Source: Marsupella aquatica
Taxonomy: Eukaryota > Plantae > Marchantiophyta
Assembly: GCA_973895155.1 (NCBI GenBank)
Contig: OZ316893.1
Location: 4,012,490-4,076,489, forward strand
DNA: 64,000 nt
Direction of reading: 5' to 3'
Below the pieces are notes generated by a model. That model was not told where the DNA came from, made no database searches, and saw nothing but the letters and a program-made list of their open reading frames with translations. This document shows, piece by piece, positions 22,041 to 53,899 of the stretch (within the stretch, counting starts at the first letter, position 1; the number at the start of each line of letters is the position of its first letter). The position numbers and the translations under genes were made by a program.

Positions 22041-22680
22041 CACTAGTAGAAACCGGGGTGTTTTATGACTAAGTTTTATGACTGCCCATGACTCCTTGTG
22101 ACTAAAGTTTGGGGGTATCAAGCCAGTCATAATTTTGACATAGCGTCTTATTTAAAGTGACTGAAATCGAGTGGTCAGCTATGTGACTAGGGTTTAAGAC
22201 ACATTTTGTGACTAATAACGACCAAATCTGTACTTGGGCATTTTGGGATTTGGAGAAGGTGTAGTCTTACAAATGACTGCAAAGTAGTCATTTGTATGAC
22301 TCAAAATGAGGTATGAATTAGTCACAAACAGTCAGTGAGGAAGAGTTTCCTTTCGCATATATGACTGGTGCTATGGTTCAATAATGGAACACAGGCGACT
22401 GATTATGACTAGTTGGTCTTAAAAGTTTAGAGTGTATGGGCACATTAGTGACAGATGATGACTACAAATGACCAATCATCCTGAAAAATCTTAAGATTGG
22501 GCTAGACTGGTTGGTCTTATTGGGGACCACGATGTAATATATCACGGTCATATCTTAATGACCCAAAATGACTCATTAGTCTAGTTCACGACTGCATTCT
22601 TTGACCCTTTTGGTCAAAATTTAGACTCGACCTAAGGCAATTGCAGCCTGCACATAGCACTAGAAACATGACTAATAGTC
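22041..22680. repeat. CACTA left subterminal TGAC(T/C) motif array
   Basis: Many ATGACT/GTGACT/AGTCA motifs in both orientations; mirrored at ~37640-37900. Typical of TnpA-binding subterminal repeats. Confidence 0.8.
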
Positions 22681-22935
22681 AACTCAAGCATACAAACATA
22701 CATTCAAGCACTCAAGCATACAAATACACAAGTCTTACATGAAAACATGAGAGACAACATAGTTCTATTCGAATCTTAGAACTCATATTAACTATTGAAC
22801 ATACATGCATAATTTCATACAAACTGTGGATGATCCAGTGAATGGTCCAGTGAATCTCAATTCAACTCTGCATTATGAAATATCTAGGTAACATTTGGCA
22901 CCAATCATGCAGTTGTTTCTAAGTTTAGGCTAAAA

Positions 22936-25900
22936 CTACAAACCACACATTTCAGGTGTCCCTATGTAATCTGTTGGCCACAACACCACAGAGTTCAGAG
23001 CATCTGCAATAATTGTCTGTGGCGGGTCATCATTCAAATTAGGAACTGGTAAAGGGGTCTTTGGCTTCACAAGCTTTGTCAACAACACTACATAATACCC
23101 TGTTGGTACTTCTTTGCAATGAAATGTAATCTGCTCAGGGCGCAATTTTCCATACCCTACACACAACTCATTTTGCTGTGGTGAGAACAATACATACTCA
23201 GGATGTGCCTGAGTTTTCAATTCTGCATCAGCTTTACGCTTCTTTGCCGCTGCCACTCTACCACTTGCCCTGGCCCGACTCTTCACCTTCCGAATAGGTC
23301 TCCCAGCAGCTGAAAGCTCTACTTCTACTCCACCGTCTGTGGTCACACCCTGTATGTGATGGAATTTGGGTCTCCACCTGGCCCTCCGTTTCGCATCCAT
23401 TCTCACCGGCTTTGGCAACTTCTATGAACTCTTCATATGAATCCAAACTGGGGGTATTCAGTACATTGGTAACCTCTGCAATAACAAAATAGCAAGTCAA
23501 CAGCCTATCAGCATTTTTGCCTTATCTCCAATCATGGAAACATATAACAAAACACATTTTTTGCCTCATCTCCAATCATGGAAACATGATGAGAAACCTC
23601 ACCTTCCATTGCTGGGGCCATGGTACCCTCCACATCCCTTTCTATGGGCTCCACCTCCATTTGCTGTTCAATGTTACCCTCTGGATTCATCAAATTGGAG
23701 TAATGTGGCAGGTCTCTAGAACCTCCATTCCATATTGCATTCATTATACATTTGTATTGGTCTTCTTGCACACGAATAAGCTTCTGAACATCTTCCTTTA
23801 AAGCAGTCAACTCACTTGCCATTTCACTCAATTTCACGGTCACATCATTCTCATGAGACTCCATACATTTCACACGATCTGATAAATTGCTAAGAGAACA
23901 TGATCCACCTCCCTGCAAACACATATGTCCAACAGAGTCAATCCATTACACCTGGTAAATAATATATGGTCCCATTGTTCATGCAAACTAGGGAATGTGG
24001 ACCTCAAAGAACACTATCTGGTATGAGTACTCACTTGGTTTGAAGGATCACTCTGGCCAGATTGTTGCTTCTGTTTTCTTGCTTCAGCTCTCACCTCTTC
24101 TTTTGTAGGGGACTGTCCATTTTGTGCCTTCTGCATACATCATATTTTCACACATTATTTGCTCGGACACAAAAAACTCAAGTACACTGTAGAAGCTAGG
24201 TCTGCCAATCCAACGATTATTCATACCAGCTGCTCTACTATCGGAGCATTCCCTTTCCTTCCTGTCAAGTTAAGGTTCTGAACGTTGCCACGTGCATATG
24301 CCATCTGGGAACTCTTACTCTTGCCGGATTCACTCAAGAAGTGATGGACTAGCTTGCTCCATTGAAGAGGATCTGTCAATGGGGGAGCAGGCATTCTTTG
24401 GTCCTCTCCACCTTCTTGAAACAATACGTGCAATCTCCACCTCTCATTCTTCAGAATTGTCTTCGCATGAGCCTGAAGACACTCCATGGCTACTCCATCC
24501 AGATGGCCCACATATTTCCATTTTGCGGCTACATTGTCAACAACTTGTTGCCAATCCGCTGGATGCTGCTGCACAAAATTCACCACACTCAAATCCAGCC
24601 ATCGCAATATTTCACCTTTCAAGTCAGCCAACCAACGATTCTTCCCTGCACATGCACTGTTCACCCAACGGTTGCTCCCAATGTCCACTACTCCTTTCTT
24701 GGTTCTGTCAGGTCCTGCATTGCTTTCTGTGGTACTACTTGGTGTGACAGGTTTAGGGTTCGCTGGAACTTTTGTACTACCCTTTAGTGGACTTCTAATG
24801 CCCCCTGCATCATCCCACATCCATGTGACATCATACAATGGTAACATCAATACCTTTGTATATGTCAAATAGTGGATACCAATTGCAATCTAACTTGCAA
24901 TGTGACCATCTTCACAGAATGCCCATCTCCAAGCCATGTGACCAACTTACCAGATGCTTTGCCGACACTCTGTGGATAAGAGGCAGGCTCAACTACCTGT
25001 ACATCTTCCCCACCAGCCAACCAATCAGGCTCTGGCCATTGCTCAGAACCATAGGCTACAGTTGTCCCTTGTCCTGCCTCTACTTCAGGTTCATAGTAAA
25101 CCTCCTTGTCAGTTACTCCCCAATCAGGATGGACAGAATCTGCAGTCACATAATTCAGCACTTTAATTAGGTCTTTAACATCACACTAGCATACCCTTTA
25201 TATATTTCCAAAGTAATTTACATAAATGCCAGAATTGAAGGGCAATCTCTACTCACATCTCCAATCGTCTCCTGTTGCTCCATACTGCTCAGTATGTTGT
25301 GTTGGTCTACCTTGGCCCCGTGTAATGTGTGGTGGTGGTGGACCCGTAACATACACAACAGTGTGCCCAGCATATGGTGGTGGCCCATACCCATCCACTT
25401 GTGGGGTTGCTCTCCCCTGAGAGGGTGCACAGTGTGTTGGTGGTGCGCCATACACCACAGTGTACCCCTCGCTGCGTGGGGTTGCTCTAACCTGACCTGC
25501 ACCTGTGCTGTGGGTATGTGTTGTTGCTCTACTTGCAAAGGAGGGTGGGATGTGCCCACCATGTGGTGCAGCTCCATACACAACAGTGTGACCACCTACA
25601 CCAACAGTTGTTGTTCCATACCCACTGCTCTGTTGGGTTTTACCTGGAGGTGGAGGTGGTATGTGCCCAGCACGCCCCATTGGTCCGGACCCACGTGCAA
25701 TGTAATGCACTGTGCTTTGCCCTCCATATGTTGTTGTACTGTGCCCACGGCCCATACCCCGAGCAGCAAGTCCACCTCTCTTAGCCTGCAAGAACATATG
25801 TGCAAGGACAATAAACCTAAAAGAAGTATCTTCCTTTGACTTGCCACACTCACATGAGCCAAACATATCACTACTGTGATACACTACTTCAACACTTCAT

Positions 25901-26210
25901 TACCACAATTTTGTTGGGCTCCACGACATTATGCTTGCCCTGCACATATTCTTCATCATCTGCATCGGGCTCCTCCTCTAGATAGTACTCTACATCATCA
26001 AATTCCTTATGGTTTTCACCGGACCCAACATCTTGCCCATCATCTGCAGAATCTGCCATCGATGGAATGTCCTTCACTGCTAGTCTCTCACTGTGTCGCC
26101 GAGGTCCACTTGCACTGTCACTGATGCTTTGCCTAACCCTTTTCTGCACTACACTTCTCCTGTCTGGGAGCCTGCATGCCATCCAAAAGCAACATCCATT
26201 GAACAACTCT
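22936..26210 (-). CDS. TnpA-like / ORF2 gene of the CACTA element (multi-exon, probably decayed)
   Basis: 24221-24868 has Ptta/En/Spm (Transposase_24)-like W..LV.HF.S...K.KS.QM..AR.N.....TGRKG. 22936-23418 has a Tnp1/En/Spm-like C-terminal domain (VGYGKL...FHCKEVPTGYYVVLL...LPVP...IADALNSVVLWP). TGCAG acceptors at ~25787, ~24131, ~23913 and ~23476. Confidence 0.75.
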
Positions 26211-26423
26211 AGTAAACATAGCTACATTCATTCCAATTAATGAGCAAAGTCTGGATAGGTTCTGTGGATGATAATTGTTCCCTTACAAAGCGGAAAATCC
26301 CTGTCTGAGCTCAGCTCCCAAAGCTGCCAGCCTCTCATCAACATATGCTGCACGTATCATGGCTTGCTTTTCAGACTCACTCATCTCATCATCATCTTCT
26401 TCCATCCTATTCAATGACAAACA

Positions 26424-29400
26424 TTATTGCATACGCATGGTGTCAGGCTCAGCCTCTACAAATGGCTCCTCACCCTCCCAAGCATCCACCCGTGTTAGAG
26501 GAACATACTCTGTGCTTGTCTGAACAGTACCAACGTCTCCAGTACGTGGTTGTTCAAATGCACTATGTCTATCTAAATGGAACTCTAGCTTTGACCCTTC
26601 TACCCTACGATTTCTGGGCTGCTTATGACACACTACCCTCCAACCTGGGTTCTCTTCCACATCCAAGAAGAAGGCCTGCTCCACCTGACTGGGATACACA
26701 AAAGGCTGCTCCCATTCGGGCAACTTGGACTTGAAATTGGCAAGCAGAAAGCCATCCCGGTCTCTTTTCATACTGGCCCTGTTACCACGCCACACTTGTC
26801 TTACCCATTCACCCTTCATCAAAATTACAGGAGTGGATGTGGCTCCATAGTCAAGAAGCCAGATATCACTTAGTTCTCCTACATACCCCATCTGCAACAC
26901 TCCTCTACTTTCATCAGGGCTCTCATGCTGAAATACACAAATGAGCCCGCAATCATATGTTACCCTGGAAGAAGTTGTTTCATCTCTCACTCTATAGTGA
27001 TTGCCATATGCTGCCATCCATTTGTAAGACTTTACCAGCAACCGTGGAGGATTGGACAGGAGATAGACATCTGCATCCATATTAGGATGGCTTGCATGAT
27101 GCTCTCGAACTGTGCATCTCAGCCATTCTGACATGCATGGGAATGTGGCAGACGTGCTTGATTGAATAGCCTTTTGTGCCTCGTACTCTCTACACATACA
27201 AGTGCATGGATTTAGCAATCAGAGTACACATTTTATACATGTCTGAAATTTAGAAACCAAGGGTAGCAAAGAAAATTGAAAACAAGTTACATACAGGGAG
27301 ACCAAAGTAGGTACTCACTCCAGCCAGGGTTGCAATTCATCAGTGTTTTCTAGAACGTACTGATGAGCCAAGTCTCTAATTTCGATGGTCAGCTTCACTG
27401 TGGTTGCAGCACCTTGTAGGACTTCCCCAGACACCCCTTCTTCTTCATCAGAATTCCATACTCGCCTTGTCACATGCTCGTAATCTGCTAGGTACTCTGT
27501 GATGTAGCCTAGAGTTTCATCTTTTATATAACCCCGAGCCATACTTGCCTCTGGCCTATAGTAAGATCACACATGACCCTTCATCAACTTCATGTACCGC
27601 TCCAGGGGGTACAACTAGCGTGCTGTCACCAGCCCGTACTGGTCTATTTCTTCCACGACATGGATGAGCAGATGAGTCATTACATCAAAGAATGCAGGCG
27701 GGAAATATATTTCAAGATCACACAACAATAGTGCCACATCTTTCTTCAATTGGGGAAACTGTACAGCATCCCACACCTTCACACAAACTCTGCGGAACAC
27801 ATCACTCAGACGCAATATAACTTTACGCACAGGCTCTTGCATGAGGCCCCTCAGGCACAATGGCAGGACTTGTTGCATCATGACATGGTAGTCATGGGTT
27901 TTCATTCTACCAAATTGGAATTTGTTATCCTTCACATGCCTCTTGAATGCACTAGCATAATCTGTAGGAGCTCGGAGTGAACTCAGCCTTGATAAGAAGG
28001 CCTGCCACTTTGTGTCTGTGCAACAATATGGTGCTTGGTACTTCAAAAACACATTTGCCCTGCTCTGGTGTGTTGTAAGCCAAAGGTGGGGTCGAATTCC
28101 CTTGTCCTGTAGATCCATACGTACAGAGCCCGTGTCCTTTTCTCCACTCAAAAATGGGAGTAGACTCTCGCATATGTTCTTCTCTATGTGCATAACATCA
28201 ATATTATGTTTGTTTGGATCAAACTCCTGCAACTCCAAAACATCAAGCAGTGAGCAAATCTCAATCTTCATAATACATACATACTACTTCATACAATCTA
28301 ACAACTAAATTGACTGAATCACATATATGGGTTGTTGGGGAGAGGAGATTACTCGCCAATACTCCAGCTGCAAGTCCAAAATGGACTATCGTTTCACACC
28401 ATACAACCTTGCAGGATCTCGTACTCCATCCTTTGCTCCTCCATCTGCATCATACTGTGCCTTGGCAGCCCCCCAAGAACTTATTTGCTCCTTCTTCACT
28501 CGAGGGGGGGACTGCGGAGCTCCGTGCGCTTGTTAAAATGTGCTATAAGATTGGGTCTACGTCTGTATGGGTGATCAAAGGGCAGAAATCGACGGTGACC
28601 AAGGTATTTGATACACTTCAAGGACTTTGAATAGTCACTTGTCACATGGGGGCCACATCTTGTGCAAGCTAAATATCCTTTCCCAACCTGGCCTGCAATC
28701 ATGCTATGGGCAGGGTAATCTGCAATAGTCAACATTACAATAGCTCTAAGCAAGAATGGATTGGCTTCACCAATCCTCTGCAGCATATCATATGTGAGCA
28801 CTCCAGTGTACCATAGCTTTCTCAGTTCCTCTACTAGAGGAGCAAGATAGACATCTATATTGGCTGCAACAGCACTGTCTGGCCCTGGAATCAACAATGC
28901 CAACATTACAAAGAACCGCTTTGTAGTCAACCATGGGGGAAGGTTGTAATTCAAAAGGGTTACAGGCCAACAAGAGTACGCATTGTTCTTCTCACCAAAT
29001 GGGTTCACCCCATCCAATGATAACCCGAGCCTAACATTCCTTGTCTCCCTAGCAAACTCAGGATACACATCATCAATCAACTTCCATTGCTTTGAATCTC
29101 CAGCATGGCGTTGTAGCCCATCTCGACTTTTGTTCTTAGCTGTCCATGTCATCAACTCTGATATGGCACGGCTCCTGAACATTCGCTGCAGTCTGGGAAT
29201 TATAGGAAAGTGACGGAGTACTTTTGCAGGTTGCTTGGACTTCCCATTGTTCCGGTACCTGTGCTTCCCGCATGTAGGGCATGTCAACTTCTTCTGATGT
29301 TCGTTTCTGAAAAGAACATGCCCATCAGGACAGACATGTATTGACTCATAGTTCAGCCCAAGTTTTGATATCAGTCTCTTTGCCTCGTACATGTTTTTGG

Positions 29401-30168
29401 CAGTAGATTACCTCCTGGTAGCACTATTTTCTGCAAGAAGGCCAGAACCTCGGACACAAAGATGTTTGGCACATTGTGGTTCCCACAAATATTCAGAAAC
29501 ATTAGCACAAATGCTAATTTGGAACACTTGCTTCCTGGGAACAGCGAATTGAAGGCCTCCTGAACTTCGGTTGGGGAGCCAAACATGGTGTCCTCTCCAG
29601 CTGTAGCCTGTTGCCCAATCTCAAACTCATCTGAAGACTCGTGGTCATCACCCGGTGCGGTCTCAAACTCTTCTGCATCTTCCATGTCCTCCCGCATTGC
29701 ATCCATATCCTGGAAAATATCCTGCACCATTTGCTGAACATTGATCCCTTCGTCTGCAGGCTGCTGAAGGACTTCAGACCCACCCAGTTGAGTCATCACA
29801 TCTGCCAACCCACCAGTGAAGAACTGGTCTCGCCTTGCACTATTTACATTCTCAAAGTCAGCCCTCCATTCCTCATCTAAAGAATCAGCCTCATTCGGAT
29901 CGTTTGTAACACGCCAACGAGGGTGTCTCCCATGAATTGCCAAGTGCCCATGAATCTGCCTCAAGACATTGGTGTGGGAGCCATTGCATTGAGTGCAAGG
30001 ACATCTCATTCGTGAACTTGGACCTGACCGTGCCACTTTGGCCTGTTCCCGATTCCAGAGCTTCTGGTCGTGTTGGGAAACCCTCATTGGATGATGTAGA
30101 GGCAACCTGGCAGATGTTGGATGGGTCCAAGGGGGAGGGTGACCTACGGACACTCTTCTAGACTCCAT
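26424..30168 (-). pseudogene. TnpD-type CACTA transposase (transposase-associated domain, Transposase_21, DUF4218, DUF4216), disabled
   Basis: CPC..C...H...HG; IHVCPDGHVLFR...CPTCG..RY; LRHFPIIPRLQRMF; RNVRLGLSLDGVNPFG; YSCWPV..NYNLPPW; IDVMHIEKNICES; MKTHDYHVMMQ; FPPAFFDVMTHLLIH; EQPFVYPSQVEQAFF. Frameshifts near 29380 and 28500; TGG>TAG at 27615 and CGA>TGA near 27566. Confidence 0.95.
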
Positions 30169-30555
30169 CTTAGAGTTCAGAACACAGGCACTCAGATTTA
30201 ATTATCATTTCATTATGAAAGTGGAAAATACATTTCTTGTTTAGTTGTGTTCCGATGTTCACACTATCTACCAAAACATATGACATGATACAGTGTAATA
30301 AATCATGCATAGACTTTCTACAACCACCAACAAAAACAAGAAAGGTTCCTGAATCGTGTACCTATTCTCAGGTCACACTGTAACAAAATTCCTAACTGTC
30401 TCAGGGTGTCACCTCCTTTGCTGTCCTCACTTATACTGCCTCAGTCTGCAATGGCCAACCAAGCACGTACATCCATGACCATATCAGAGTCCAATCACCT
30501 ATAGTCATAGACAAACGTGCCTGGTGTGAGAGCAGTATGAGATCTCCTCACATTA

Positions 30556-31158
30556 TTACCAGAGTTCATCTGGATACCCACCCTGTTCTCGATGGTAGTC
30601 ACACCTGAGGTACACTGGCATGTACATCAGGTCATCCAGGAGTATGCCCTGGGCATACCAGGGTGGGGTTCGATCTGTGCCTACAAGAAGTGGTTCTAAT
30701 GCCCTCCACTGGGGGGAGCTAGCTACCAAGTCCCTCCATTGTGTGCTAATTAGTCTATATTTGCAAATGTCTTGTGCGGTTGACCACTGAAGAATTCTGG
30801 GCCACACATCCGACAGCATTATATCATCTGGCAAACCAGGCAACAAGGAAGTCCCCACAACATTCTGCTCTTCAATTTCATCTGCTGAAAAATAAGATTC
30901 ATCGTCTCTTGCATCCTCAGGCGGTGTTGAAATATGTTTCAACACCAACCCATGCAGGAGAGTCCAAACAGTGGCCAGCCATGTGGCAACCCGGAGGAGG
31001 AGCCTACATAGCGCCTGTTGATGTAGGAAAGGCAACATACCCACCAAAGTCTGCCGCCAAGATTTGAGCCCACCCAGTAAGTTTACAGTGACACCCCCAG
31101 GCCCAGCAAGAAACCACAATCTGCCAACAGTAAAATAAGTCCAACTGCGACCAACCAT
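30556..31158 (-). CDS. CACTA cargo: F-box domain protein (200 aa)
   Basis: LLPGLPDDIMLSDVWPRI...DICKYRLISTQWRDLVASSPQW fits the F-box consensus (LP.LP.D...I..RL......VCK.W..L); hydrophobic N-terminus; AACGTAG acceptor 6 nt before the ATG. Confidence 0.75.
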   Translation of the reverse strand: MVGRSWTYFTVGRLWFLAGPGGVTVNLLGGLKSWRQTLVGMLPFLHQQALCRLLLRVATWLATVWTLLHGLVLKHISTPPEDARDDESYFSADEIEEQNVVGTSLLPGLPDDIMLSDVWPRILQWSTAQDICKYRLISTQWRDLVASSPQWRALEPLLVGTDRTPPWYAQGILLDDLMYMPVYLRCDYHREQGGYPDELW

Positions 31159-31249
31159 AACAAGCTACGTTAGTTCAAATATCACATTTATTTCAAAGAT
31201 GTGATTTGTACACAAAGCTTGTCTCAAAACTGATGCTACTACGTACTCC

Positions 31250-31663
31250 TCACTCTGATTCAGAATCGCTAATAACCTCTTCCTCACTTGTTGTCACATA
31301 GTTTTCACTGTGAGGATCCTGACCCTTCCGTGGCCAGGCCTCAAAAAGATCATAGTCCATTGGGTTTTGACGCTTCCCAGCTGCTACTGATTCCACAAGC
31401 CAAGCATATGAAACCACAAACACATTATGGGACATGACATAAAAGCGAATGTCACCCTTCCCAAACTTGCGGCAGGCTTTGGGATATGACTTAGTAATGA
31501 CATGAGTGGTGTCCTCTGTTATATTCTCCTCCACTGTCCCACCTAGGTCAAGCACTGTGGACTTGTACACTTTGCACTTAACCTCTCCAATTCCCGCCTC
31601 CACAAAAACCATGCTCAGCCCTTTCAGAATGGGGGTTGGTTGCTTCATCTCCTCAGCCAACAT
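31250..31663 (-). CDS. CACTA cargo: BRCT domain protein 2 (plant Pol-lambda-like BRCT)
   Basis: LKGLSMVFV...LGGTVEENITEDTTHVI...VVSYAWLVESVAAGKRQNPMDYDL shows the BRCT hallmarks (GG, THVI, W...S); acidic tail. Confidence 0.85.
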   Translation of the reverse strand: MLAEEMKQPTPILKGLSMVFVEAGIGEVKCKVYKSTVLDLGGTVEENITEDTTHVITKSYPKACRKFGKGDIRFYVMSHNVFVVSYAWLVESVAAGKRQNPMDYDLFEAWPRKGQDPHSENYVTTSEEEVISDSESE

Positions 31664-31668
31664 ACTCT

Positions 31669-32121
31669 TCAGCCTTCTTGAGTTTGTCCTTTGTTGAGTA
31701 CAGGTCCATATTGGACATCAGCAAGCCGTGCCTTTGCTTCCCAGACTTCTTGTTCAGCCCAAGCTGATGCAGTAGCTTCTTCATCCTCCCACAGTTCATA
31801 TTGCTCAGTATCCTGTACAATCTGATGTGCTATGGAATCTGTGATCCAAGAGGCCTCAACTACTTTTAGGCCTCGCTCAGTAATTGCAGAATTCATGTAG
31901 GACCATGACCATTTCTTTATCACTGATAGCCATGTCCCTGCAACAACATGTGTAGTCTCTGGAGTGATGTCCTGCACTACAGTGCCATGGAGCTCAGAGA
32001 ATCGTTTTTGTACAGTTGGCCAATGCACTTTGGTCAACCCATGCTGGCCATGGACCAAAATGGCTCTGACCCCTGTAAACACTGCTGGGTGGTCACACTT
32101 TCTACGTTTCCCAGGCTCCAT
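31669..32121 (-). CDS. CACTA cargo: BRCT domain protein 1
   Basis: FTGVRAILV...LHGTVVQDITPETTHVVA...KVVEASWITDSIAHQIVQDTEQYEL; N-terminal KRRK NLS-like motif; CACGTAG acceptor 11 nt before ATG 32121. Confidence 0.85.
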   Translation of the reverse strand: MEPGKRRKCDHPAVFTGVRAILVHGQHGLTKVHWPTVQKRFSELHGTVVQDITPETTHVVAGTWLSVIKKWSWSYMNSAITERGLKVVEASWITDSIAHQIVQDTEQYELWEDEEATASAWAEQEVWEAKARLADVQYGPVLNKGQTQEG

Positions 32122-32717
32122 GTACACACACCCTACGTGATCAGAGTGAATATTGGAAGAGTGGGTTCACCTGCCAATAGAAGGACACCAAAATTCCTGC
32201 TTTTTAAGTTGATCCGGTCCCCTGTTGCTCAAGTCCAATTTTGATAGGTACAAGGGATATGTGAACAATAAGTACTAGGCACCTGCACCGATGCAGGACA
32301 TTGTTTGAGTATATACCAGGAAATCCATATCAAAGGTGAAATGAAGTGTAACCAACTTGTCATGGCCGCACATACATATTTTGTTGTAAAGGAGGATACA
32401 TTCAATGACAAACTTATAGGGCAATTTGATTAATTGCATGCCTGATAATTTATATGCTTACAACTTTGAAGTCCTGTTTTAATTTAGCAGTCTGATGAGA
32501 GTGTTTGTGAAAATGACCACTCAGCCTAAATACTTCCAAGAAGGCTTGTTAGGATAAGTTTTTATAGGCATGTACCCAGCCACTGACGCTATAGCATAGG
32601 ATAAGTGCTGCCTATACAAACTTGCCTACCCAACTCCTTTTCAAAATTGGAATCTCTGCAATCCCCCAAAAATAGTACACCCACATCAGGTGCCCTGTGC
32701 ATGTACAATGTTCAGCT

Positions 32718-33398
32718 TCATAGCCAAGATATGTGATCTCTCACAGGAGTGCGCGAGGTAGGATCAATGGCATGGCGATGACAATAAAATATCCATCGAT
32801 CAACACCATGTGCAGAGTGATCATAGATTTCTCTGTCACAAGCATAACCCTCTGCTTGACGATCTTTCAAGCAATGATAGTGCCACATAGTGGGACACCT
32901 AGCATAGTGGACTATGTCAGCCCAGTACTCATCATCATGCTCACCACATGCCTTGCACCTATGAAGTGGGCAAGCTGTGGCATGAGCAGGCAAACACTCA
33001 AAACAGAAAAACCTCACACAAAAACGGTCTGGACATTTCCTAACATCCGGTGCAGCATCAACAGAGCCCTCATAGGACCCCAACTTCCCACACTGTGCAC
33101 ACTTAGCTTGCTTCTCCAAACAATCAGTGCACATCCAGTCTCCCTGGTGTGTTGACGGGAGGCCCACCCCTGGACAATTGTTTTCTGCAGCAAGGTGAGA
33201 CTCCGGGTTGAGGTGGAAATGCCTCATGCAAGGGCCCTCACAGATGACCAAGCTCCCACCATCGTCACAAATGGCACAACAATGAGCTGCCTTCTGGAAA
33301 ATCTGACTTGCAGAGAAGTTAGTAACGTGTGGCCCAGGTACACCTGTGTTGCTCACCTCTATCACATGCTTTTTCGCTGGAATTTTGGGGCGTGCCAT
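32718..33398 (-). CDS. CACTA cargo: stand-alone EDM2-type composite PHD-finger protein (226 aa from ATG 33398)
   Basis: CAICDDGGSLVICEGPCMRHFH...C.DC......C..CGKLGS...C....C.RFF...C...CPLHRCKAC...RCP..WH..CL...IFYCHRHAIDP...TPVRDHI parallels the EDM2 PHD region as I recall it (CAICDNGG..CCEG.C.RSFH; CPLHKC..C; CRRCPKSYH.KCL; IYC.EH.ID....TPVRDH). Confidence 0.9.
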   Translation of the reverse strand: MARPKIPAKKHVIEVSNTGVPGPHVTNFSASQIFQKAAHCCAICDDGGSLVICEGPCMRHFHLNPESHLAAENNCPGVGLPSTHQGDWMCTDCLEKQAKCAQCGKLGSYEGSVDAAPDVRKCPDRFCVRFFCFECLPAHATACPLHRCKACGEHDDEYWADIVHYARCPTMWHYHCLKDRQAEGYACDREIYDHSAHGVDRWIFYCHRHAIDPTSRTPVRDHISWL

Positions 33399-33805
33399 GC
33401 CTACGCATGAGACAGACAGTACAATTAAGTAGACAATCAAGTAGTGTGACGAGGCTATGATAGTGAGACAAATAAGTTTGAATACGTGACTGTATGGGAT
33501 GTTTGCAGGTTATGACATGGCCCATTAATTCTGTCATATAATGTTACAATGTTGGCCAAGTTAAAGCAGTCATTCAAGCAGTCTTTCATTGGAGAATTTA
33601 AAGAGAGCTTGCTTAATTCTTACATTAGGATATTCCACTTAGTGCAGCCAAATTAGGATAAGTTATATACTATGGATCCTAAACCCTGCACCCAAAATTG
33701 CTCAAACTTCAAAATTTTAAATAATTATCCGCGGTGCTTAAGTCAGAGCATTAAGTTATAGGTCATTGCACTCTGGTCTGTGCATACAGTGTGACAAGTG
33801 CTCCT

Positions 33806-34255
33806 CTACAGCGTGTCATCCAAACATGTGTAGACACCAAACGCACCGGTGGTGGGGTCTGGGAGGCCAGGACAAGTGACATCGCCAGGCACACTGCAGG
33901 ATGGCGAGTGGTTCCAGATGATACATTGTGCTCTATGCAAAACTCGACACCCAAGAGAATGGTCATCCAACTCTGGGCTAGAAGCCCGACAGGCAGGACA
34001 GTCATATTGGCAGCTGTGTACACACCCTTGGGCCCTAATTTGTGGCGGGTCATGTACAAGAGACAGAAATACCAAGGATGTTGGGAAGGGTAGAGAAGCA
34101 GGTACAGGCCGACTGTAGTTATTCCTGGCAACAATAGGGTACTCAAAGTACCATGCAGACTGGGCAGGAAGGATCCCAAGTCTCACATACTCAAGGCGCA
34201 ACCTCTCTGCCTTGCGTGCAAGCCGCACATGTTCAGCATTGCGGGTGCTCACCAT
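33806..34255 (-). CDS. CACTA cargo: unknown Cys/His-rich protein (149 aa, possibly prematurely terminated)
   Basis: ATG 2 nt after a CAACAG acceptor; basic N-terminus; CVHSCQYDCPAC...H..GC..H..QC...H..SC......C. The frame stays open for ~20 codons (RSTCHTVC...) after the TAG. Confidence 0.5.
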   Translation of the reverse strand: MVSTRNAEHVRLARKAERLRLEYVRLGILPAQSAWYFEYPIVARNNYSRPVPASLPFPTSLVFLSLVHDPPQIRAQGCVHSCQYDCPACRASSPELDDHSLGCRVLHRAQCIIWNHSPSCSVPGDVTCPGLPDPTTGAFGVYTCLDDTL

Positions 34256-37099
34256 AACTGTTGCTTTTGTTCAGATGTCTTGTGTTCACGTCCTCTGACG
34301 TCCTTTGATCAGCAAGGTGAGCGGGAGCTGTACTTGCCTCACCAACAACAACCAACCTGAACTTATCAGTTCCCACTCACTGTGTCATTCCCTTGATTCC
34401 AACTAGAGGTCATAGTATAAACTTAGCATGAAACACTCCTAATCAACAATGTTGCAAACTACAATATCTAGAAACACTGAAAGTCTCTGCCTGCAGTGAG
34501 CAACAGAGAGGTAGTTCACTGCTTGCAAGAGTGACTGAGCAGGAGTGTAGGCAGACTGGCATTCAGTTGGCACAACTATATTGTGCATCAGCACAAAAGC
34601 TCTTATAAACATGATATGCATGAAACTCATCGATAAAATAGAAGGAAACTAAACAGTGGATGCAAAACAAAGCAAATTACAGCACAGGTCGGCACAGGGC
34701 AAAATAGAGCAAAACAGAGCATGGATCGAGAAAATGAACAACATGTAGTTCTTACGCAAGAAACTCAGTGACAGCAAACAAATTCACTAGCCCCAGGGAG
34801 TGAAGCAAATGAGTACCAAGCCAACCAACTAAGATTGACTATGAAATGCAAGTGACATCATTTCAACCAAAAAAAACAATAAAGCACTTAGGCAACATTA
34901 ATATAGAAGTGTAGTGGAATTATATCATGCGACAGATCATACTTGGTTCTACCTGAGGTGTACAGGCATACTGCCCTCAGGTAGAATGTGTATGCCCGCA
35001 CATATACAAGAGGATCCCCAACAAAGCATACAACAATATGATCTGAATTCCCAATTACTCTGTTCTGTCTATACCTATGTTCATCAAAAAATGTTATGAG
35101 CAGACATTGAGAAGCTAGCAAAATAGAGGAGCCAATTGAAGCCAAAATATTACATTGCAGGTTGAATACATCAGTCACTGCCAAGAATCTATGCATGAAA
35201 CAAACATGAAGGTATCGAATATGTATATGCATTACAGACTTTCATGCTAGACAGTGGCCAAAGTTAAAATGAACTAGTTTTGACTTTATGACTCTCTGAA
35301 TGAAAATATTTTATTTCAGAATTATATTCTATTTCAGAATGGGTTCAACTCTGTGGATTGTGAACTGTCCCACTTGGAATTCCACTATTTGGGCTATCTA
35401 AGAATGCAGTTCAAAGGACATACAGTGCAAGACAGTTAGAGATCATGTCTTCATTCCGACGTCCAATTGGACATTTTATGTCACAAACTGCGCAAGCAAT
35501 GAAGTCCATGGAATTTTCTCAAAAATGCAGCTTCTGTTGTTGGTAAAAGCAACTATGAGTTTCCTATTGAGTGCCCCCAATGCACAATACTACCAGAGGC
35601 CCACTTTAGACAACGATGGCTGTCATTACTTATTGGGAACTCGGATGCATATATATTGAAATGCTTCGCAGAGTGTTCCGACCACAGGCAAACCTAACAT
35701 CAATCTCAACATTCAGTCCCGTCTCAGAATTGATTTAGAGGAGGCTTAGCATTCAGTACAGTGTCAACAATCAGACTTGTCTTCACATTCAACATCCGAT
35801 TGCAAGGGGCTTCGATGAAAGCACAAGACAGAGCTATAGAAGAAGAGACAGAGGAAGGCACCTGTGTGTTTGGGGAAAATGTGAAGCTCCAAAGACCACC
35901 CTAAACTGAAATCGCAGCGCGAAGTTGGCCGGTCGTAGGTTGATAAAAGCAAAGCATAGAGCCACTTGGACGTCTGCAATGTTGTGAACTTGCTCCTTTC
36001 CTCACACTGTGACTGATGTCGCAAGGCACAACAGTCCTATCAATCCCCACAGAATGTGGAATCTTTCCGTCGCAGTTGAGGTCCTATGCCTGATGACATG
36101 ATCAAGAATGAGTAGCTACAATGTCCAGTCTCTCTTGACAGGGTGACATAGCAGCAATACATACATTGGATCAAAGCACGAGTCGGAGAAAAACAATGAG
36201 AGATAAAAATGGACTTTCGCTCACCCATGTGTTGGATGGAAGAATGCAGCTACGAGGGCCGGTCTCCAGCTACAGCTCCTTGATGGCAAACCGCAGGCTC
36301 TTCCCGGTTCTTCAACCAAAAACTGACCCGAAACACACTCTTGCAATGTAATGAGTCAGTGGCAACAACTCCAATGTAGGTTGCAGCTGCCAATCCGTTC
36401 CCTCCGCCCTCCTTGCCAATGCCAACTCCCGACAGCAATGAGGCTTGTTCAGTTGACCTCCTTTGTAGGAGCTCCCAACTCCCAAAGGAAAACTGTCACT
36501 ACTCAGCTAAAAAACGGCCCCTGGACCTTGTCGCTGCCAATGTGCGTCGTGCGCTCAGTTCTCCTGCCCACCAAGAACTTCAACTATAACTTCAACTCCA
36601 ATGCCCAAGAAGATTGATGAGCTCCTTAGTCAAAGATGTAGCTGGAAGGGTATGCACACACTTACAGTTCACTAAGCTCCAATGCCCGGGACGATTGAGG
36701 AGCTGGTCCTGAGACTGGTCGCAGCTTGCACTCTTCACCTCAGGAATCCCGCGACGTTGTTTGAGCTCACAATACGCTTGGAAGAGAAGGATAGCTGCAG
36801 TAGACTTCACCCTAAGTCTTTACGCCTCCCACACAGGTCCCGCATTAGTAAAGCTTGTGCAGTGCCTTCCGCAGCAGTAGCAAAACTCCCGACGGACTCC
36901 CTCCTTCCGCAGCAGTAGTGATCACCTCCCTTGGCGCAACTACAAATGCGCTCTACTTGCAGCCCAAGGACTAAAATATCCTCAGCACGCAGCGATGGAA
37001 GGTTGGCAATGGGAGAAGTTACATACGGGACCCACACCACCACAATGAGCTCATAGTTTTACGAGGGAAAGTGAAGGAAATGCGCACCCTAGCCAGCCG

Positions 37100-37400
37100 C
37101 AAGGATGCACTTCCGCCTTTGTGTCTGCACCTTCTCCCGTCTCCCGATCAAACGAAGCTCAGACATGTGTGACTAAACGGGACGTGCGACTAAACGGGAC
37201 GCGGGAACGGAAAAGTTTCACCTGATGGTGGCAATCAACTCCATCCAATGGTGCGTGTCCCCCGATTAACCCCCTCCCCCTTGAGATCGATATAACCCCC
37301 ACGCCCATGTCATATAACCCCCCTAAACCCCCTTTAGGTGTCTTGGTAAAACCCCCCTAAAACCCCCTTTAGGTGTCTTGCTACAACCCCCCCTAAACTC
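37100..37400 (-). promoter_or_regulatory. Likely CACTA promoter / 5' leader region
   Basis: GC-richer block upstream of all minus-strand element genes, with short direct repeats (GACTAAACGGGACG x2; ACCCCCTTTAGGTGTCTTG x2). Function inferred from position only. Confidence 0.4.
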
Positions 37401-38306
37401 TGGCAGGATCGGTTACATGCATGTGGATGAGTTAGCTAGGCCTAAACTACACTTCATGTAACACAAAACCCCAAAAAAGCCTCCCTAGCAAACCCTTATG
37501 CCCCTTGCATATAGTTCAGTCAATGGCTATGTAAAGCGTAATCCCATGGCTCAGAATGTGTATGGGATCGGGTAAATATCCTTTAACCAAGCATATGGTA
37601 CTACATTATTTTAAAAAGTGTTCAATGGCCACAATGAAAATGAATGGACAAGTCAATTTTGTTGACTAAATTGGACTTGGCTTACTATTGGCCATTGTCT
37701 TATGTTGACTAAGTATGACTATGTAGTCAGACCTGAATGACTCATTCAATAGAGCAAGATTCTTAAAAAGTTCAATTGTCTTAAGTAGTCATATACATGA
37801 CTACTAATGACTATCAAGTCTTGTGGGGTCTCAAAAATAAGACTGATGTTCAAAGGTTGCACTTGCGTGGTCACCCCAGTCACAAGTGGTTTGGTCACGA
37901 AATGCCCCGGTTTCTACTAGTGGAGTCAGAAGATGGAAGCCAAGGCCGAAGTCCGGAGAGGCCAGTCCTTAGAGCTTATAACCGGGCCCAAATGGAGGAA
38001 CTGGTGGATGTAAATCAACCTGTGGCAGCCCAACAATACTCAGAGGAGGAGATTGGGGGCTTTGTAGAAGAGACCAGCATGCTCGGTAGTCAGGTTAATG
38101 TGGATGACTACGACGATGAAGCTGTCGATCATGGGGCGAGACCAGTGCCGGGAGTGAGAACGTTGGGAAGGTTTTGTAGAAGACTTCCCTCAGTCTTTTA
38201 ATACAAGCCGGAGGATCAGAAAACCCCAAAGTCTCATCCACCGGACGTGACACCATTGGAATTTGACTGAATGAAGGAAGCCGAGGCAGGTCTGAAGCTC
38301 GGGGGT

Positions 38307-38530: not shown

Positions 38531-41500
38531 GGGGGTCCAAGGCCTAAAAACGTCGTAGGTGATGGGGAGGTCCCCATGTAGTGAGACCCCCGAGGTCTGA
38601 AGGAGAAACTCGACGAGTTGAGGTCCCAAAATGACATGCAGGAACGGCAGCTACCAGGCGGTGATTGGCCGAAGGAAATAAGACAGCTTAGTGAGAAGCA
38701 GGCCGAACCTCTCACTGACTTCGATCAATTACAAGCAGAAGCCTGGGAGAAACGGCCTCGTTGGCAGATGCTGGTATCACCTGGCAGATCAAAATATGCC
38801 AGGGATCAGGCTAGGGAGTATGGAGACATGTGTGGACTACTAGCCTTAGAAATCTTCGGCAATGAGTTAGAATCCGGACCATTTCTTAGAAAGGAAATGG
38901 TAGACCAGACAAGGTTGGAGGAGGCAATGACGTTGGAACGATTAAAAAAAGAAGAGGTAATCGCTTGGCTTTGCTCCATGGAAGCCGAAGTTGCTAAGAC
39001 AAAGTCTGATCAACCAACTCAGCAGGATCTCTTGGCTAAGGAGCAGGAATTGGAAGTGGCGAACAACCAATTCAAAAACTACCAATTGGATAACCAGCAG
39101 ATCAAGGAAAAATTGATGAAGGTAGAGCTGGAGTTAGCCGATTCAAAAGCAAAAGTATAGGGTCTAAATCGCCAAGTCAAGAGGCTCAAAAAGACGGCTA
39201 AGGATCAAGCCACCCAGTGCAAGAAGGCCTTGGCAGAAGCCCAAAGGAAGTATGACAAGTTACTCGACAGGTTGGAGGCCATGCGTGAGAAGCATGATGA
39301 CGCCATTTGCACAGCCGCCAATGATCACCTAAGCCGAGTCCAACAGATACGCAAGGAGCTTCAGGAGGAGCTAGTGAGGACAAAGCAGGCATGGACGGAT
39401 GAGGTCACAAAGCTGGAAAGCATCAACAATTCCTAGAGAGCCGCTTTGGATAAGCAGGAGTTTGAGATTGTGCAGATCTTAAACGAGGAGCTCAAGACGG
39501 CCAAAGAGGAGGCGCACCGGCTTAATGAGGAGGTTGAGGATTTATCCCAAGAGCTGGAGGAGGCCAAAGACAAGATGATCGGCTTGTAGAGGCGTGCGGA
39601 TAATCAAACAGAGAAGTTGCGAAAGTATGCCAAAGCAGGGCACGGATCACCAACTGGACGGTCTCCTACTAGTGGCGTGGTCGCTGGGAATACTGAAGTG
39701 CCGAAGCTGACATCTATATTGTCAAGAGTAACCGGGGGTAGGGCAATGCAGTTGGTTGTGGATCTGGCCAAAACATTCATGGGGCCAGCAGGTACTTCTG
39801 GGGTACCTCTTAAAGCCACGCCAGAAGAGGTCAAGAGTATGGCCGCCCACATTTGTGGGACTGTTGCTACAAAGGCAGCCATGGTAGAGATAAGTAATGC
39901 CGATGAACTTGGAGCTGCGGTAACAGGTTCATACACCGGTACAGCCACCATGGACTACCAGAATGTAAAGCCGTGGAAACTCAATACAGAACGTATTGGA
40001 GAGCGGGCTTGGATTGAGGAAGTGAAGGCCAACGCTATCGAAGCCATTTTTCAATAGGATGCCAATGCCGCAGCCGATGCCGAGGCCGACAAACCAGAAC
40101 CCAAAGTCGAGGAGGCCGGAGGGATCAAGCCGGAGCCGATGGCAGGAGAAGGTGCAGAGTCCGAAGATTCGGACTTACCCCCGGTCATCTGACAATTAAG
40201 GAGGGCCAGTTATCGGTTGGAAGGAGGACGTGGCGGCAGGAGAAGGGCTTGGGCCAGAAAGGCGCGGCCGTTGTAGGATGGGACAGGGCAAGTATCGCCT
40301 TGTCGGCTTACGTAGTATTAGATACTCGGTTCCCACAAGGTTCCGGGCTAGTCAAGTTTTTTAGGTAATAGTTTTTTTGTTGGATTATCGCGGTGAAAGG
40401 CCGTGAGTTGTGGTTAGGATTCCGTTTTTTCCCTTGAACGCGCTGCAAGGATAAAAACCTGGGCAGCGTGGCTCAGGGGGCTTTTTCTTAGTCAAGACTC
40501 TAGTGTAAACATCAGTATGCTAGCATACAGCTCTTGGCTAAATCTAGACCGCGGATTATCAGTAAACCACAAAATTCCATTTCTGTGCAATTGTTTGAAT
40601 TGAGTTGGCCTTGTTGCCTAGTTCACAGATTCTTGCAATCATGGCGTTGTGTGTTGTGATACTTGTCGCTTGATCAATTTAAGTCAGTTAGAGCGATACT
40701 GTGAAGCTATACAATCGAATTGTCTTGATTGGAGACTGCCAAACCAAACTCTGAGAGAAAAGTGAGGATTGAGAGTGTTTCGTTGGTTAAAGTGTGGGTT
40801 GAGTCGGTCTGAGAAAAACCTTCAGCCAGCTTAAGAGATTAAGCCATAGAGGTACATTCCAGGGGCGGAATACAAACATACCCGACGAAGTCAATTGATA
40901 ATTAGGTGTCACAGCAATGCACAATTCACAAGCCCAGTGAAAGAATCGTTCCAGCATAGACTTGTGGATCGAGAGTTGATCGCGTTTCCAAGCCGAATGG
41001 TAGCCAAACCACCATAAGCCGACCATAAGTAGGGGTTTATAGCAGCAGGCGGATGGTTCTTGGGGTTAGAGGTGTTGGGAAACGCGCCACAACTTTACCT
41101 AAATTGGACTTCAACGGTAACTCAACACCAACCCCAAGGGGTGTCGGCGCGATATTGCCACTTCCTCCCACCAGCCCCTGTGGTAGAGTCACCACTCTCC
41201 AATCCTGACATTATTCCTTCACCCCCCCCCCCCCCCCTTGCCACCTCCTCTTCACATACTTTGCATGGAACCTGCCACCCCCCCGACTAGACTACTTGAG
41301 GGAATGGAGAACCAACCCTTTGGCTCTCTGGTTGGCTCTCCGGCCCTACCCATTTAAGCCTTCCATCCCCTGCCTTCACCTTGCAACCATTTGACAGCAG
41401 AGAATTTTGTGAATTATTGGACATTGCATTTGTTAATGCCCCTCCCTGATTTATGTAAAGTACAGCCAATTTCTACATGTATTTAGTAGGTATACTAATA

Positions 41501-42929
41501 AGTCAAACAGTGCCTTGACCATGATTTCCTATGAAAAGTAAGTATAAGAAGAGATGCTCCATGGGCATAGGGAGAATGTACATGAGAGCAGGCAATTGTA
41601 TATGGCTTGGTATATGGTTACCGGCGTACAAGATGAGGGGTAACAAAGAACGTCATTTATATGATGAAATAAACCTAAATAACCATTCGATAGCCGACAA
41701 ATGTATCTGGTTACCGGTGTGCTACGTGAGGAATTTAACACAGAGGGAGCCCCCCCCCCCCCAAATCCTCCTCCTTTTCAGTTTTGTTGCCTCTCGGGTG
41801 GTAACTTAGTTCTGAGAAAAGACTTGAAAAAATTTGTGTAAGAATATAAGAATTCCAGTAATACACACCCTAAACCTTAAAAAAATACAATAATAATTTA
41901 CTATTTTAACCCCTCAGTTTATGAATATTCTTGAAATATTCCCCAATTTGGTCATTTTCCTCCAAATTTTGTACTAAAAACCTCTATAGTTCTTATAGTT
42001 TTCAAACCGGGATTAAAACACCCCTCTTGTTCTCCAACAGCAATTTTAAAGTCTTTGGCGCAATTGAATAAAAAACCCTAACTTATTTGCTCACGATGGG
42101 TTGGAAGAAAAGAAATGAGGATCCTGCAAGAATAGGGATCCACATAGAAGTCTTATAAGTTATTGTGTGTTTGGTAAGGCTACTATTTTGGGAGACTTCA
42201 TCATCGTTTTGATGGGGCCCTTGTGATATTCACATAAGTGCGGCTTCATAGGACCAGCAGATACTCTCGCCACCATTATCTGTTTTGACAACAGAGTTTC
42301 ACCAGCAGCTTTTGGTAAAGTTACACTCTGCTCAAGATTGAGCAATCCATCATATTTCTATAGAAATCAATACCCATATTTAGTGGACCATTAGTGTTAA
42401 ATTATGATGTTTTCCTTCTTGACGATCCAATCATTACTCATTCCATGCACACGTAATCGACACAATCTCTACGTGGTTCACCTCTTCTCTAAGGCTACGT
42501 CCACACAACACTCAAGCTTTACTTCAAGAGTAGACGTACACACATGCCCTCCCTCTTCCTAAAGTTGCTCTGTTACAATGAGTAACACACCAGCGGCGTA
42601 CACTAGCCCCGGTATATACAAGGTCAGACATGACTAACCTAACCTCAGCTAAGACCCTAACTGTGGTTAGCTTAAGTGCCATAACCTTTGAGTCACAAGA
42701 CTAAGAGCAATCCTTAATAAACTCCCCCTTGACTCTAGTCTTGGGGACTGCAATTTCTGCTATCCATATGAGATACTCAACGGGAAATTCTAGACAATCA
42801 CCTAAAATCATAGGTGTCCCCCTAAAAACCATTTAAGGTTAACTAAGGGTTAATAAACTAGAATTAAGCCGTAGCCATAACAAGATTGAGTAACCCGTAT
42901 ATAGAAATTACATATTGATAAGTTACTCT

Positions 42930-43056
42930 ACTAGTGCTGCAAATGCAAAACTTGCAAAGTAGCATGGTGTTTTGAGTAACTCTCCAAAGGAATCAATTTG
43001 GTAAAAGCATCAACTGGGTTGAGTTTTCCATCAATCTTGACTAGCTCAAACAGCCG
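42930..43056 (-). pseudogene. Copia RNase H C-terminal remnant
   Basis: RLFELVKIDGKLNPVDAFTKLIPLESY...LQVL* resembles the Copia pol end motif (VKI.T..NPAD.FTK.L). Confidence 0.75.
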
Positions 43057-43281
43057 GGAGCATAATGGCCCCGACTCTAAGCAACCCACTCTCGGTTCGC
43101 CCCACTGATGGTCAAGGGGCCAAGCACCCTTGGAACTAAACCTCCACGCCTACTTGGCCTTGCCTCCTGAATGCAAGCTCCCTTGGGAGACTGAACGCGG
43201 CTTGGCTGCTATTTTGGCAGGATTTGGCAAGCAGGAGAGCTAACACCCGCAAACCTCAAGAACCCATGGCACCCCCAGACC

Positions 43282-43312
43282 TAGGGTTTAGGGTTTAGGG
43301 TTTAGGGTTTAG
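43282..43312 (+). repeat. Interstitial plant telomeric repeat (TTTAGGG)~4
   Basis: TAGGGTTTAGGGTTTAGGGTTTAGGGTTTAG. Confidence 0.9.
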
Positions 43313-43951
43313 CCCTCCTTGAGATTTTTTCAACGCATCCAAGAAGTCCTCCAACAGACTTCCCGTTGGGAAGATATTGCCTTTTCCGTTTGGCGCTTTC
43401 CCTTAGTGTCGCGACCGCCACGGCTCACGACTTCGGCTCGCCCTTAGCACCCAGGGAGACACCACTCCCCTCATATATGCTTCTGGAGACCTGTCACCCC
43501 CAGACTAGCTTTGGTCCTTAAACATTTGGCCTCCAACCCGGATCCTATCGCGCAAACTAGGCGCGACACCAATTGGCAATGCCCATAACTTCTTCGTTAG
43601 GCGTCTGCAAGCGGATTTCCTTGGCCCGCTATGATCGGGCTGACCCAGTGCTCATGTCTAGGCCCTCGGGTCTCATCGCTGCTCAGGGTACCTGATCGGC
43701 TAAACCCGGATCGGGCCATAACTCACATCCCAAGCGTCCGTTGCCCATGGCGTCAACTCCATTGGCCTTGGGCCCAAGAGGATCTCACACTCAAGCCCTT
43801 AGAACTCAAAGTCCGTCTAGGGGTCCGGACAGTTGACCTTGAGTCCGGCCCCTTTTCCCCTTGACCCAACCAGCTCTCAGCTAGCCTAAGTCGTTAGTGT
43901 GAATCACCAGTTTGGCTCCTTGCCTTCGCTAGCGCCACGTTTCATTGCCCA

Positions 43952-44629
43952 TTAGTCTCCCCATGCCAAGTCCTCCCCGGATGGCGTATCCAGGCCTGGA
44001 CCATAACAGAGCTCGGTGTCGGAGCTAAGTGTTAAGGTAGTTGAGTTCCACGACTGTGCATCATCTAACAGCAAAGAGCTTATCACCTCATCATATAAAA
44101 TGGTTTTCAGGTCTCTATACAAGAGAACCTGCCTCAAACCCTGATACGATGGGGGTAAGGAGCTGAGAAGAAGCAATGCCTTATCTTCATCTTCCACTCC
44201 CTTGCCAAGATTTGACAAATCCACAGCTAGGCTGTCGAATTCGTCCAAGTGATCTCTAAGCTTGCCTCCTTCTTTGAGCCTCAAGCTCATCAAGAGAGAC
44301 TTCTTGTACAATTGATCTAAGGCATCCTCGTGGTAGTACTTCTCTCTTAGAGCCTTGAACAAGGATACACAATCCTTGTAGTCATCAAGTTTCTTGATTA
44401 TGTGCGGCTTCAGATACAACATCACCGCATTAATAGCGATCACTTGCTTCTGCCTCCATTTCCTCAATGGGATCTCCTCTTCATTGCTAGACTCCTCTCG
44501 AGTAGATAGCAGATGATCTAGGCCCATAGCTCGAAGAATTCTCTTGACTTGCTTCTCCCATAACAAGTAATCCGTCCGCCCATCATACTTTTTCACCTCA
44601 AACTTGACACCTCCAAACTTGGATGCCAT
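43952..44629 (-). CDS. gag: Copia Gag (Retrotran_gag_2/UBN2-type), truncated before the zinc knuckle
   Basis: KFEVKKYDGRTDYLLWEKQVKRIL...LKEGGKLRDHLDEF...L.NLG..VEDEDKALLLLSSLPPSY. Confidence 0.9.
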   Translation of the reverse strand: MASKFGGVKFEVKKYDGRTDYLLWEKQVKRILRAMGLDHLLSTREESSNEEEIPLRKWRQKQVIAINAVMLYLKPHIIKKLDDYKDCVSLFKALREKYYHEDALDQLYKKSLLMSLRLKEGGKLRDHLDEFDSLAVDLSNLGKGVEDEDKALLLLSSLPPSYQGLRQVLLYRDLKTILYDEVISSLLLDDAQSWNSTTLTLSSDTELCYGPGLDTPSGEDLAWGD

Positions 44630-44960
44630 CTTTGTCCTCCCGATGTTCTCCGTGTGCTATTGCTACGTTGCTTCCTATATCCTTTTGTCGCTTTTTCCTT
44701 TCTTCTGTCCTAGTGACTCAACTCAAATCATGGAAAAATGTCAAATTGTGAAATTTCTCAAAAATCTTGTAGCTTGTCACCGCCATGTAGCCCACCAGCC
44801 TAGCAAACCAACGCCGAAATCCAAAATCAAAACCAAGCTTCGACGGAAAATTTTTCATGTTTCGGTCGGGGTGGGTAAAACTAAAAAATTTCTCCCTCGT
44901 TTTGACCACCTCGGGGAATAACCAGAATGCCAAGTAAATGCAAATAGATTGGTGCACTGT

Positions 44961-48131: not shown

Positions 48132-48350
48132 CCATTATTGGGGCTCTAGGGTCTTCTGGCTCGTTGGTCGTTGTGGATTTTTCGTTTGCCATTATTGGGA
48201 TTCTCAGGCTTTTTGGGTCTTAGGTCTTCCTGGGATTTTCTTTCAAGATTATTGGGGCTCTCAGGCATTTTGGCTCTTTGATCTTCCTGGGTTTTAAGTT
48301 TGCCATTATTGGGGTTCTTGGGCTTTTTGTCTCTTACTAGGTCTTCCTGG
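48132..48350. repeat. Degenerate ~57-bp tandem repeat, 4 copies
   Basis: Units begin (CC)ATTATTGGG and most contain TCTTCCTGG; probably part of an old retroelement remnant. Confidence 0.7.
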
Positions 48351-53686: not shown

Positions 53687-53899
53687 CTTGGCAGCCGCTT
53701 TTTAGGAACCCTCGGCGGTGCAACAACTCCTGCCTCGGACACTTACACACGAAAACCTCTGAAAAATTCGGTTACACTCGTCCTCGTACCGCTCCCTACC
53801 TCCTAAAGCGCAAACCCTCACACCCAATCTTGACGAGCGAAAAAAATGGCTCCTGCCTTTTTCTTCAGAGGACGAGACGAAAGAAGGTAAGGTGTGCCG

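Follow-up and report, generated by a model that had tools for sequence, protein, structure and literature searches.

The VANC and KIU genes of VANDAL MULEs are anti-silencing genes, of which KIU carries a captured Ulp1, and the counter-silencers of plant transposons described in one review are MULE factors that recognise DNA motifs; CACTA elements are described there as capturing host DNA (PMC13317346). On the host side, EDM2 is reported to bind chromatin marked by H3K9me2 and to favour polyadenylation at distal sites (PMC7529245; PMC7472560), and VRT and ART motifs are reported to act as competitors at the pocket of a PHD finger (PMC11187062). A literature search largely confined to papers outside subscription found neither an EDM2-type PHD carried by a transposon nor a transposon histone mimic, and the main text of an Arabidopsis transposon-product atlas contains no PHD, BRCT, F-box or EDM2 (PMC13547354). 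Here, an EDM2-type PHD gene located within a transposon is described from a 64,000-nucleotide stretch (the window) of the Marsupella aquatica genome.

The gene is a stand-alone, EDM2-type triple-PHD frame of 226 aa on the minus strand (33398-32718), ending in IFYCHRHAIDPTSRTPVRDHISWL, and its description draws on the ORF, Pfam, relatives and AlphaFold. A preliminary description of this DNA had pointed out a PHD array in the frame, and three NSD-type PHD models do match it in order, each below the Pfam cut-off: PHD-1st_NSD at residues 39-93 (E 1e-5), PHD_NSD at residues 96-140, and PHDvar_NSD at residues 148-180. PHD1 extends from C41 to C93 (33120-33278, minus strand), with an atypical H62...C75 spacing that is also seen in EDM2; PHD2, delimited by ligand alignment, from C100 to H146 (32961-33101, minus strand); and PHD3, a variant finger with a TPxRDH tail identified by Pfam and alignment, from C148 to H222 (32733-32957, minus strand). 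Three linked fingers, the wide gap between His and the next Cys in PHD1, and a C-terminal C-x2-H...TPxRDH make this a cassette of the EDM2 type; according to the preliminary description, the PHD arrangement of Arabidopsis EDM2 ends in TPVRDH, a sequence also found in row P0013. The protein is not an EDM2 ortholog, being PHD only, without the N-terminal RFD or the C-terminal methyltransferase-like domain; host rows carry DNMT1-RFD.

The start Met and end point of the ORF are identical in its relatives in the alignment, in agreement with the earlier view that it stands alone. Longer proteins containing the cassette numbered 0 among 157 candidates, in a search that also failed to recover known EDM2 proteins. 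The coding frame is intronless, as had been said of it, and an AG acceptor-like site, a candidate only from sequence context, lies 2 nt 5' of the ATG (33401-33402, minus strand); a spliced leader or upstream exon is thus possible. The substitution of Tyr for an expected Cys was also recovered: the codon for residue 165, a zinc-ligand position, is TAT (32904-32906, minus strand), and Cys occupies this position in 15/16 family rows and 23/23 host rows, identifying a lesion of this copy. In an AlphaFold2 model, residues 27-226 were confident (mean pLDDT 83), and residues 1-26 were disordered both here and in the intact relative P0002 (mean pLDDT 79); neither of these two models shows the tail docked on a PHD of the protein itself. 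Foldseek returned only partial PHD matches (PZP domains and NSD PHD-C5HCH), with TM-scores of ~0.2-0.3 over the query. When the cassette was modelled together with an H3 tail, without an alignment or control folds, the score was 0.06, which speaks neither for nor against binding.

The PHD gene lies inside a 15,882-bp CACTA element (22041-37922), which bears out the earlier proposal that it is transposon-borne. The terminal inverted repeats (22041-22072, plus strand; 37891-37922, minus strand) begin CACTAGTAGAAA and are flanked by GAC (22038-22040) and GAG (37923-37925), which form a 3-bp target duplication differing at one base, and six and seven TGACTA subterminal repeats lie near the two ends. 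Contigs in the public runs X1 and X2 join 22035-22037 to 37921-37923 and so represent the empty site. Additional joints in public runs (22719-33872 and 25577-36818) correspond to internally deleted forms of the element that do not contain the PHD gene. A TnpD-type transposase is spread over four frames (26424-30201, minus strand) with Transpos_assoc, Transposase_21, DUF4218 and DUF4216 domains; the CACTA termini, subterminal repeats, 3-bp duplication (one mismatch) and Transposase_21 domain assign the element to the CACTA class. Open frames at 22936-25896 (minus strand) occupy the position expected of a TnpA-like gene, a suggestion made from position alone, and have no Pfam match. The transposase has a stop at 27615-27617 where other copies have Trp, and is not that of an intact autonomous element. 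Because it bears three lesions (Cys165Tyr, a BRCT frameshift and the transposase stop), this copy is a decaying one.

The PHD gene belongs to a cassette on one strand, in the order ORF-x, PHD gene, two BRCT frames, F-box frame and TnpD-type transposase. ORF-x (33806-34255, minus strand) encodes a Cys-rich protein of 149 aa with no Pfam family and an Atlas recognition of 1831, under the useful mark; an AG lies just 5' of its ATG, a donor-like GTGAGC follows just after, and its summed contig depth is among the highest of the cassette. BRCT repeat 1 (31669-32121, minus strand) and BRCT repeat 2 (31250-31717, minus strand) were identified by Pfam, and match BRCA1, DNA ligase 4 and Rtt107 weakly (E 0.003-0.009). 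The Ser-Gly motif of the BRCA1 BRCT is phosphate-binding; in the alignment, BRCT1 reads His-Gly at this position. Most of the depth in runs X1, X2 and X6 shows one extra base near 31682-31684, which puts both BRCT repeats in one frame in other copies. The CACTA element also carries a tandem-BRCT gene (31250-32121) as cargo, broken in two here because one base is missing. The frame that follows (30556-31164, minus strand) contains an F-box (~30834-30703) by Pfam.

The end of the cassette and the start of the transposase are bridged by contigs, both here and in a diverged family (joint 30171-30480). In runs X1 and X2, summed contig depth, which is not copy number, is 1-2 orders higher over 30430-34500 than at the CACTA ends, rising near 30430 and dropping near 34500, such that the whole cassette is set apart from the CACTA ends and transposase. 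Since depth does not give copy number, this step is taken only as a hint that the cassette may also be shared with other elements. Among 110 short pairs, no convincing combination of inverted repeats and target duplication was found for a nested element around the cassette, and no Helitron ends were seen there by eye.

Several other repeats are present in the window. The CACTA element interrupts an outer element (20194-41514) with 30-bp, 97% inverted repeats beginning GGCACTGTTTG, whose frames (20869-21828, 38585-39160 and 39590-40057) have no Pfam match. A further outer inverted-repeat pair of 35 and 77 nt (12549-42078) suggests a third nesting level, and contains frames at 13066 and 14015 that likewise have no Pfam match. 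Additionally, there is a LINE remnant with endonuclease and zf-RVT domains (17674-19712), a short copia-type LTR element (42395-47327) with LTRs ~92% alike, gag at 43952-44656 and a 585-bp internal duplication, a 57-bp tandem repeat in three copies (48134-48336), and an intronless, host-type F-box/kelch gene (52505-53701).

Database searches identified 32 relatives of the ORF, 30-84% identical where measured, giving 33 family rows with the query. These came from 5/38 candidates, 14/230 matches of a profile search, six additions from cluster look-ups, and the best 150 of 225 representatives, among which family members held top ranks. For the 22 of 32 relatives whose source was established, all were from Logan, JGI or ENA, with 0 from NCBI or UniRef. 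The whole cassette is spanned by 19/33 rows; the other 14 are truncated or leave frame, which may reflect contig ends. This proportion and the sources of the rows point to a family that is repeat-borne, so that other members would be carried by transposons as well. Metagenomes yielded 12 loci whose best segments were 25-46% identical, and these were judged host-type because of that identity; a scan of viral contigs gave 0 out of 319 pattern matches.

Across the 16 full-length rows, each of the 24 zinc-ligand positions is retained in 14-16 rows although family identity falls to ~30-40%, so the family consensus retains the ligands, as the preliminary description would have it. Cys132 in PHD2 is found in 16/16 family rows at a position where the host has His, and the family PHD2 is without the ~20-aa insert of most land-plant EDM2s. 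Among the listed differences between the cassette ORFs and other copies, 8/13 are synonymous versus an expected fraction of ~0.28 (p ~0.02); the tables behind this count list only 40/1112 and 40/260 sites, with six in the 5' part of the F-box frame and one 5' of the BRCT Met left out. Family diversity is deeper than that among host land-plant EDM2s. For this subfamily, the gene is encoded by the element, its ligands are kept and synonymous differences are in excess; distant relatives are known from contigs of ~1-13 kb alone. Overall, the ORF probably represents a conserved gene family that, in this case at least, travels as stable CACTA cargo.

Phylogenetic analyses placed the family in one clade, with 9 family rows in a 62-row tree (SH-aLRT 99), 16 in a 49-row quick tree (SH-aLRT 99), and 8 in a 28-row tree (SH-aLRT 100). 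This clade is long-branched and apart from host EDM2, with which it does not group as an ortholog would; the separation of transposon copies from host EDM2 that had been anticipated is thus found. In the 62- and 49-row trees, in which long odd rows were present, the family fell outside the land-plant group. Once 21/49 rows had been removed, a liverwort EDM2-like paralog became its weakly supported sister group (SH-aLRT 87), a position not recovered in the two larger trees. This paralog comprises Calypogeia CAM6087769.1, Riccia KAL3685775.1, and Marchantia Mp1g03210 and Mp4g03050, and the best single-cassette profile scores were those of Calypogeia, Riccia and Marchantia Mp1g03210 (141.6, 137.1 and 131.3 bits, respectively); the next row after the paralog scored 127.5 bits, and P0014 sums two cassettes. 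The best non-family matches were EDM2-like, rather than NSD or other, unrelated PHDs, and NSD2 PHD1-3 matched only at E 2e-14 (profile positions 14-167). These scores uphold the EDM2-type label first given to the gene, and an origin from a liverwort-type EDM2-like paralog would be consistent with them.

PHD-only EDM2-like proteins are also encoded by hosts, including a Marchantia protein of 280 aa, grass proteins of 259-380 aa and a Cinchona protein of 241 aa, the grasses concerned being Triticeae, Miscanthus and Eleusine; in the trees, these host proteins lie outside the family clade. Rows P0045, P0058, P0042, P0053 and P0070 are proteins of this kind from annotated genomes (grasses, Marchantia and Cinchona). 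Given such host proteins, the absence of EDM2's other domains is not on its own a sign of a transposon decoy.

The PHD1 reader site is remodelled in the family. The stretch of seven residues leading up to the first Cys contains acids in 144/145 host rows and none in 28/29 family rows, in which the motif FSxxExxQ[KT][AS][AP]H precedes PHD1 in place of the acidic patch. AIRE-PHD1 is reported to grip unmethylated K4 through Asn295 and Asp297 and R2 through Asp312, and to touch R8/K9 with Asp304 and Glu307 (PMC2685098). When these positions were transferred by counting from the first Cys of the alignment, AIRE being a distant homolog, position 54 (AIRE Asp312) was Asp/Glu in 15/16 family rows, and an acid was present at position 46 (Asp304) in 12/16 and at position 49 (Glu307) in 11/16. 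The K4-facing positions 37 and 39 (Asn295/Asp297) are Ala/Ser and His/Gln in the family. Because the acidic patch is lost, H3K4 reading by the family is likely to differ from that of host EDM2; because the acids at 54, 46 and 49 are mostly kept, PHD1 would still engage the H3 tail. This natural loss of the acidic patch offers a comparison for how the EDM2 cassette reads H3.

The disordered N-terminal tail carries a motif resembling residues 1-10 of histone H3, identified by motif scoring and AlphaFold (residues 2-10, ARPKIPAKK; 33369-33395, minus strand), with H3 R2, K4, A7, R/K8 and K9 kept in register. Scored with H3 residues 1-10 taken from P0202, H3(1-10) was the best of 59 H3 10-mers against 21 family N-termini (z 10.6, which overstates independence because the rows are related); a shift of one residue gave z 7.6, all others were <3, and 0/400 permuted H3 motifs matched the H3(1-10) score. 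Among the 18 rows scoring at least 10, K4 is present in 18, R2 in 16, R/K8 in 15, A7 in 12 and K9 in 11, and position 3 (H3 T3) is Pro in 10/18. The linker varies among family members, yet the motif remains aligned.

A pattern picked after the data had been seen occurs in 15/29 family rows, 2/145 host pre-PHD segments and 0/145 host N-termini. The motif is absent or weak in 14/29 family rows, and in one subclade it is internal, without a free N-terminus. Scores of at least 15 at positions 2-11 were obtained for 6/16 family rows and for 5/164 other proteins, among them Marchantia EDM2, whose row P0016 begins with ART and scores similarly; across the window, 1/253 frames reached this score, namely the query itself. 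After Met removal, the free Ala-Arg-x-Lys end would be able to work as a histone mimic. The tail could also be a nuclear localisation signal, which would look much alike.

The reading that we favour, possible though short of probable, is that the ORF belongs to an accessory-gene family of predicted H3-tail binders whose own H3-like tail acts as a decoy. The gene would be an accessory gene of the CACTA element, drawn from an old family of small triple-PHD proteins that conserves its zinc ligands; its EDM2-type fingers, retuned, would bind histone H3 tails; the exposed H3-like tail would compete for or bait host readers and writers; and this decoy action would ease silencing of the element. If true, a second route of counter-silencing, at the histone level, would run through a host heterochromatin-reader module made into a transposon gene. 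A wider version seems unlikely, in which this CACTA lineage carries a chromatin toolkit of retuned reader with H3 mimic, tandem BRCT and F-box that would bind element chromatin, bait silencers and perhaps send them to be degraded; if true, the toolkit would amount to a transposon-encoded histone mimic. The same neighbours could instead form a targeting module, in which the PHD cassette and the tandem BRCT protein anchor the transposase at repair sites or in chromatin of a chosen state, the basic tail being no more than a signal for localisation or DNA contact. The position of the PHD, tandem-BRCT and F-box genes directly upstream of the transposase on its strand, the contigs bridging cassette and transposase in two families, and the weak BRCT matches to BRCA1, DNA ligase 4 and Rtt107 agree with such tethering, but BRCT1 has His-Gly rather than BRCA1's Ser-Gly, and we rate it as rather unlikely.

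The preliminary description had envisaged a truncated EDM2 that would bind H3K9me2 like EDM2, either compete with the host protein or bring in ASI1/AIPP1, and favour read-through of the transcript of the element itself. The cassette is of the EDM2 type, EDM2 is reported to be an H3K9me2 binder (PMC7529245; PMC7472560), and the positions whose acids face H3 R8/K9 in AIRE have mostly stayed acidic; yet the acidic patch is lost in 28/29 rows, the nearest host matches are the liverwort paralog rather than full-length orthologs, and bryophyte transposons also carry H3K27me3 and H3K9me1 (PMC10952607). Reading of chromatin in the manner of EDM2, and joint action with ASI1/AIPP1, are unsupported as they were written, and this model is quite unlikely. 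It is quite improbable, too, that the ORF is passive Pack-type cargo derived from the host and copied along with the element without helping it: capture of host DNA by CACTA elements is known (PMC13317346), three genes are broken in this copy and many relatives are incomplete, but ligands, family motifs, start and stop are conserved at ~30-45% identity, family diversity exceeds that of host land-plant EDM2s, and synonymous differences are in excess. A host family of intronless PHD-only EDM2-like genes in poorly annotated plants, of which only this subfamily was recently taken up by CACTA, would agree with the PHD-only host proteins and with distant members known from ~1-13 kb contigs alone. 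However, the annotated PHD-only host proteins fall outside the clade, many family members are incomplete, and 0 members come from annotated proteomes, though those searches also covered proteins of Marchantia, Riccia and Calypogeia; this explanation is likewise quite improbable.

Comparison with known proteins places the gene between host readers and transposon accessory genes. The PHD1-3 cassette of NSD2/NSD3 is homologous, but scores far lower than EDM2-like proteins, has H-x2-C in PHD1, and lies within a large SET methyltransferase. The liverwort EDM2-like paralog shares a C-terminal cassette, the top single-cassette scores and, in one tree, the sister position, and its row P0013 has FSxxE and TPVRDH as in the family; unlike the ORF, its proteins are annotated host genes of 280-770 aa that keep an acidic DDPP patch and the PHD2 His. 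EDM2, of the AAE complex, has the same three-finger cassette, atypical PHD1 spacing and TPxRDH end, whereas the ORF is without DNMT1-RFD and the methyltransferase-like domain, has lost the acidic patch, and has a PHD2 His-to-Cys change, an H3-like tail and a transposon location.

A short H3-like motif is also the hallmark of histone-tail mimics such as DPPA3, PAF15 (VRT on the UHRF1 PHD) and viral mimics; here, the putative mimic lies on a transposon protein that has PHD fingers itself, and its third position is mostly Pro. VANCs recognise DNA motifs and have been shown to work; the ORF, located in a CACTA element, encodes a module of the PHD reader type with a predicted function. Like VANC and KIU, it is an accessory gene in a plant DNA transposon, and KIU was likewise built with a captured host domain (PMC13317346).
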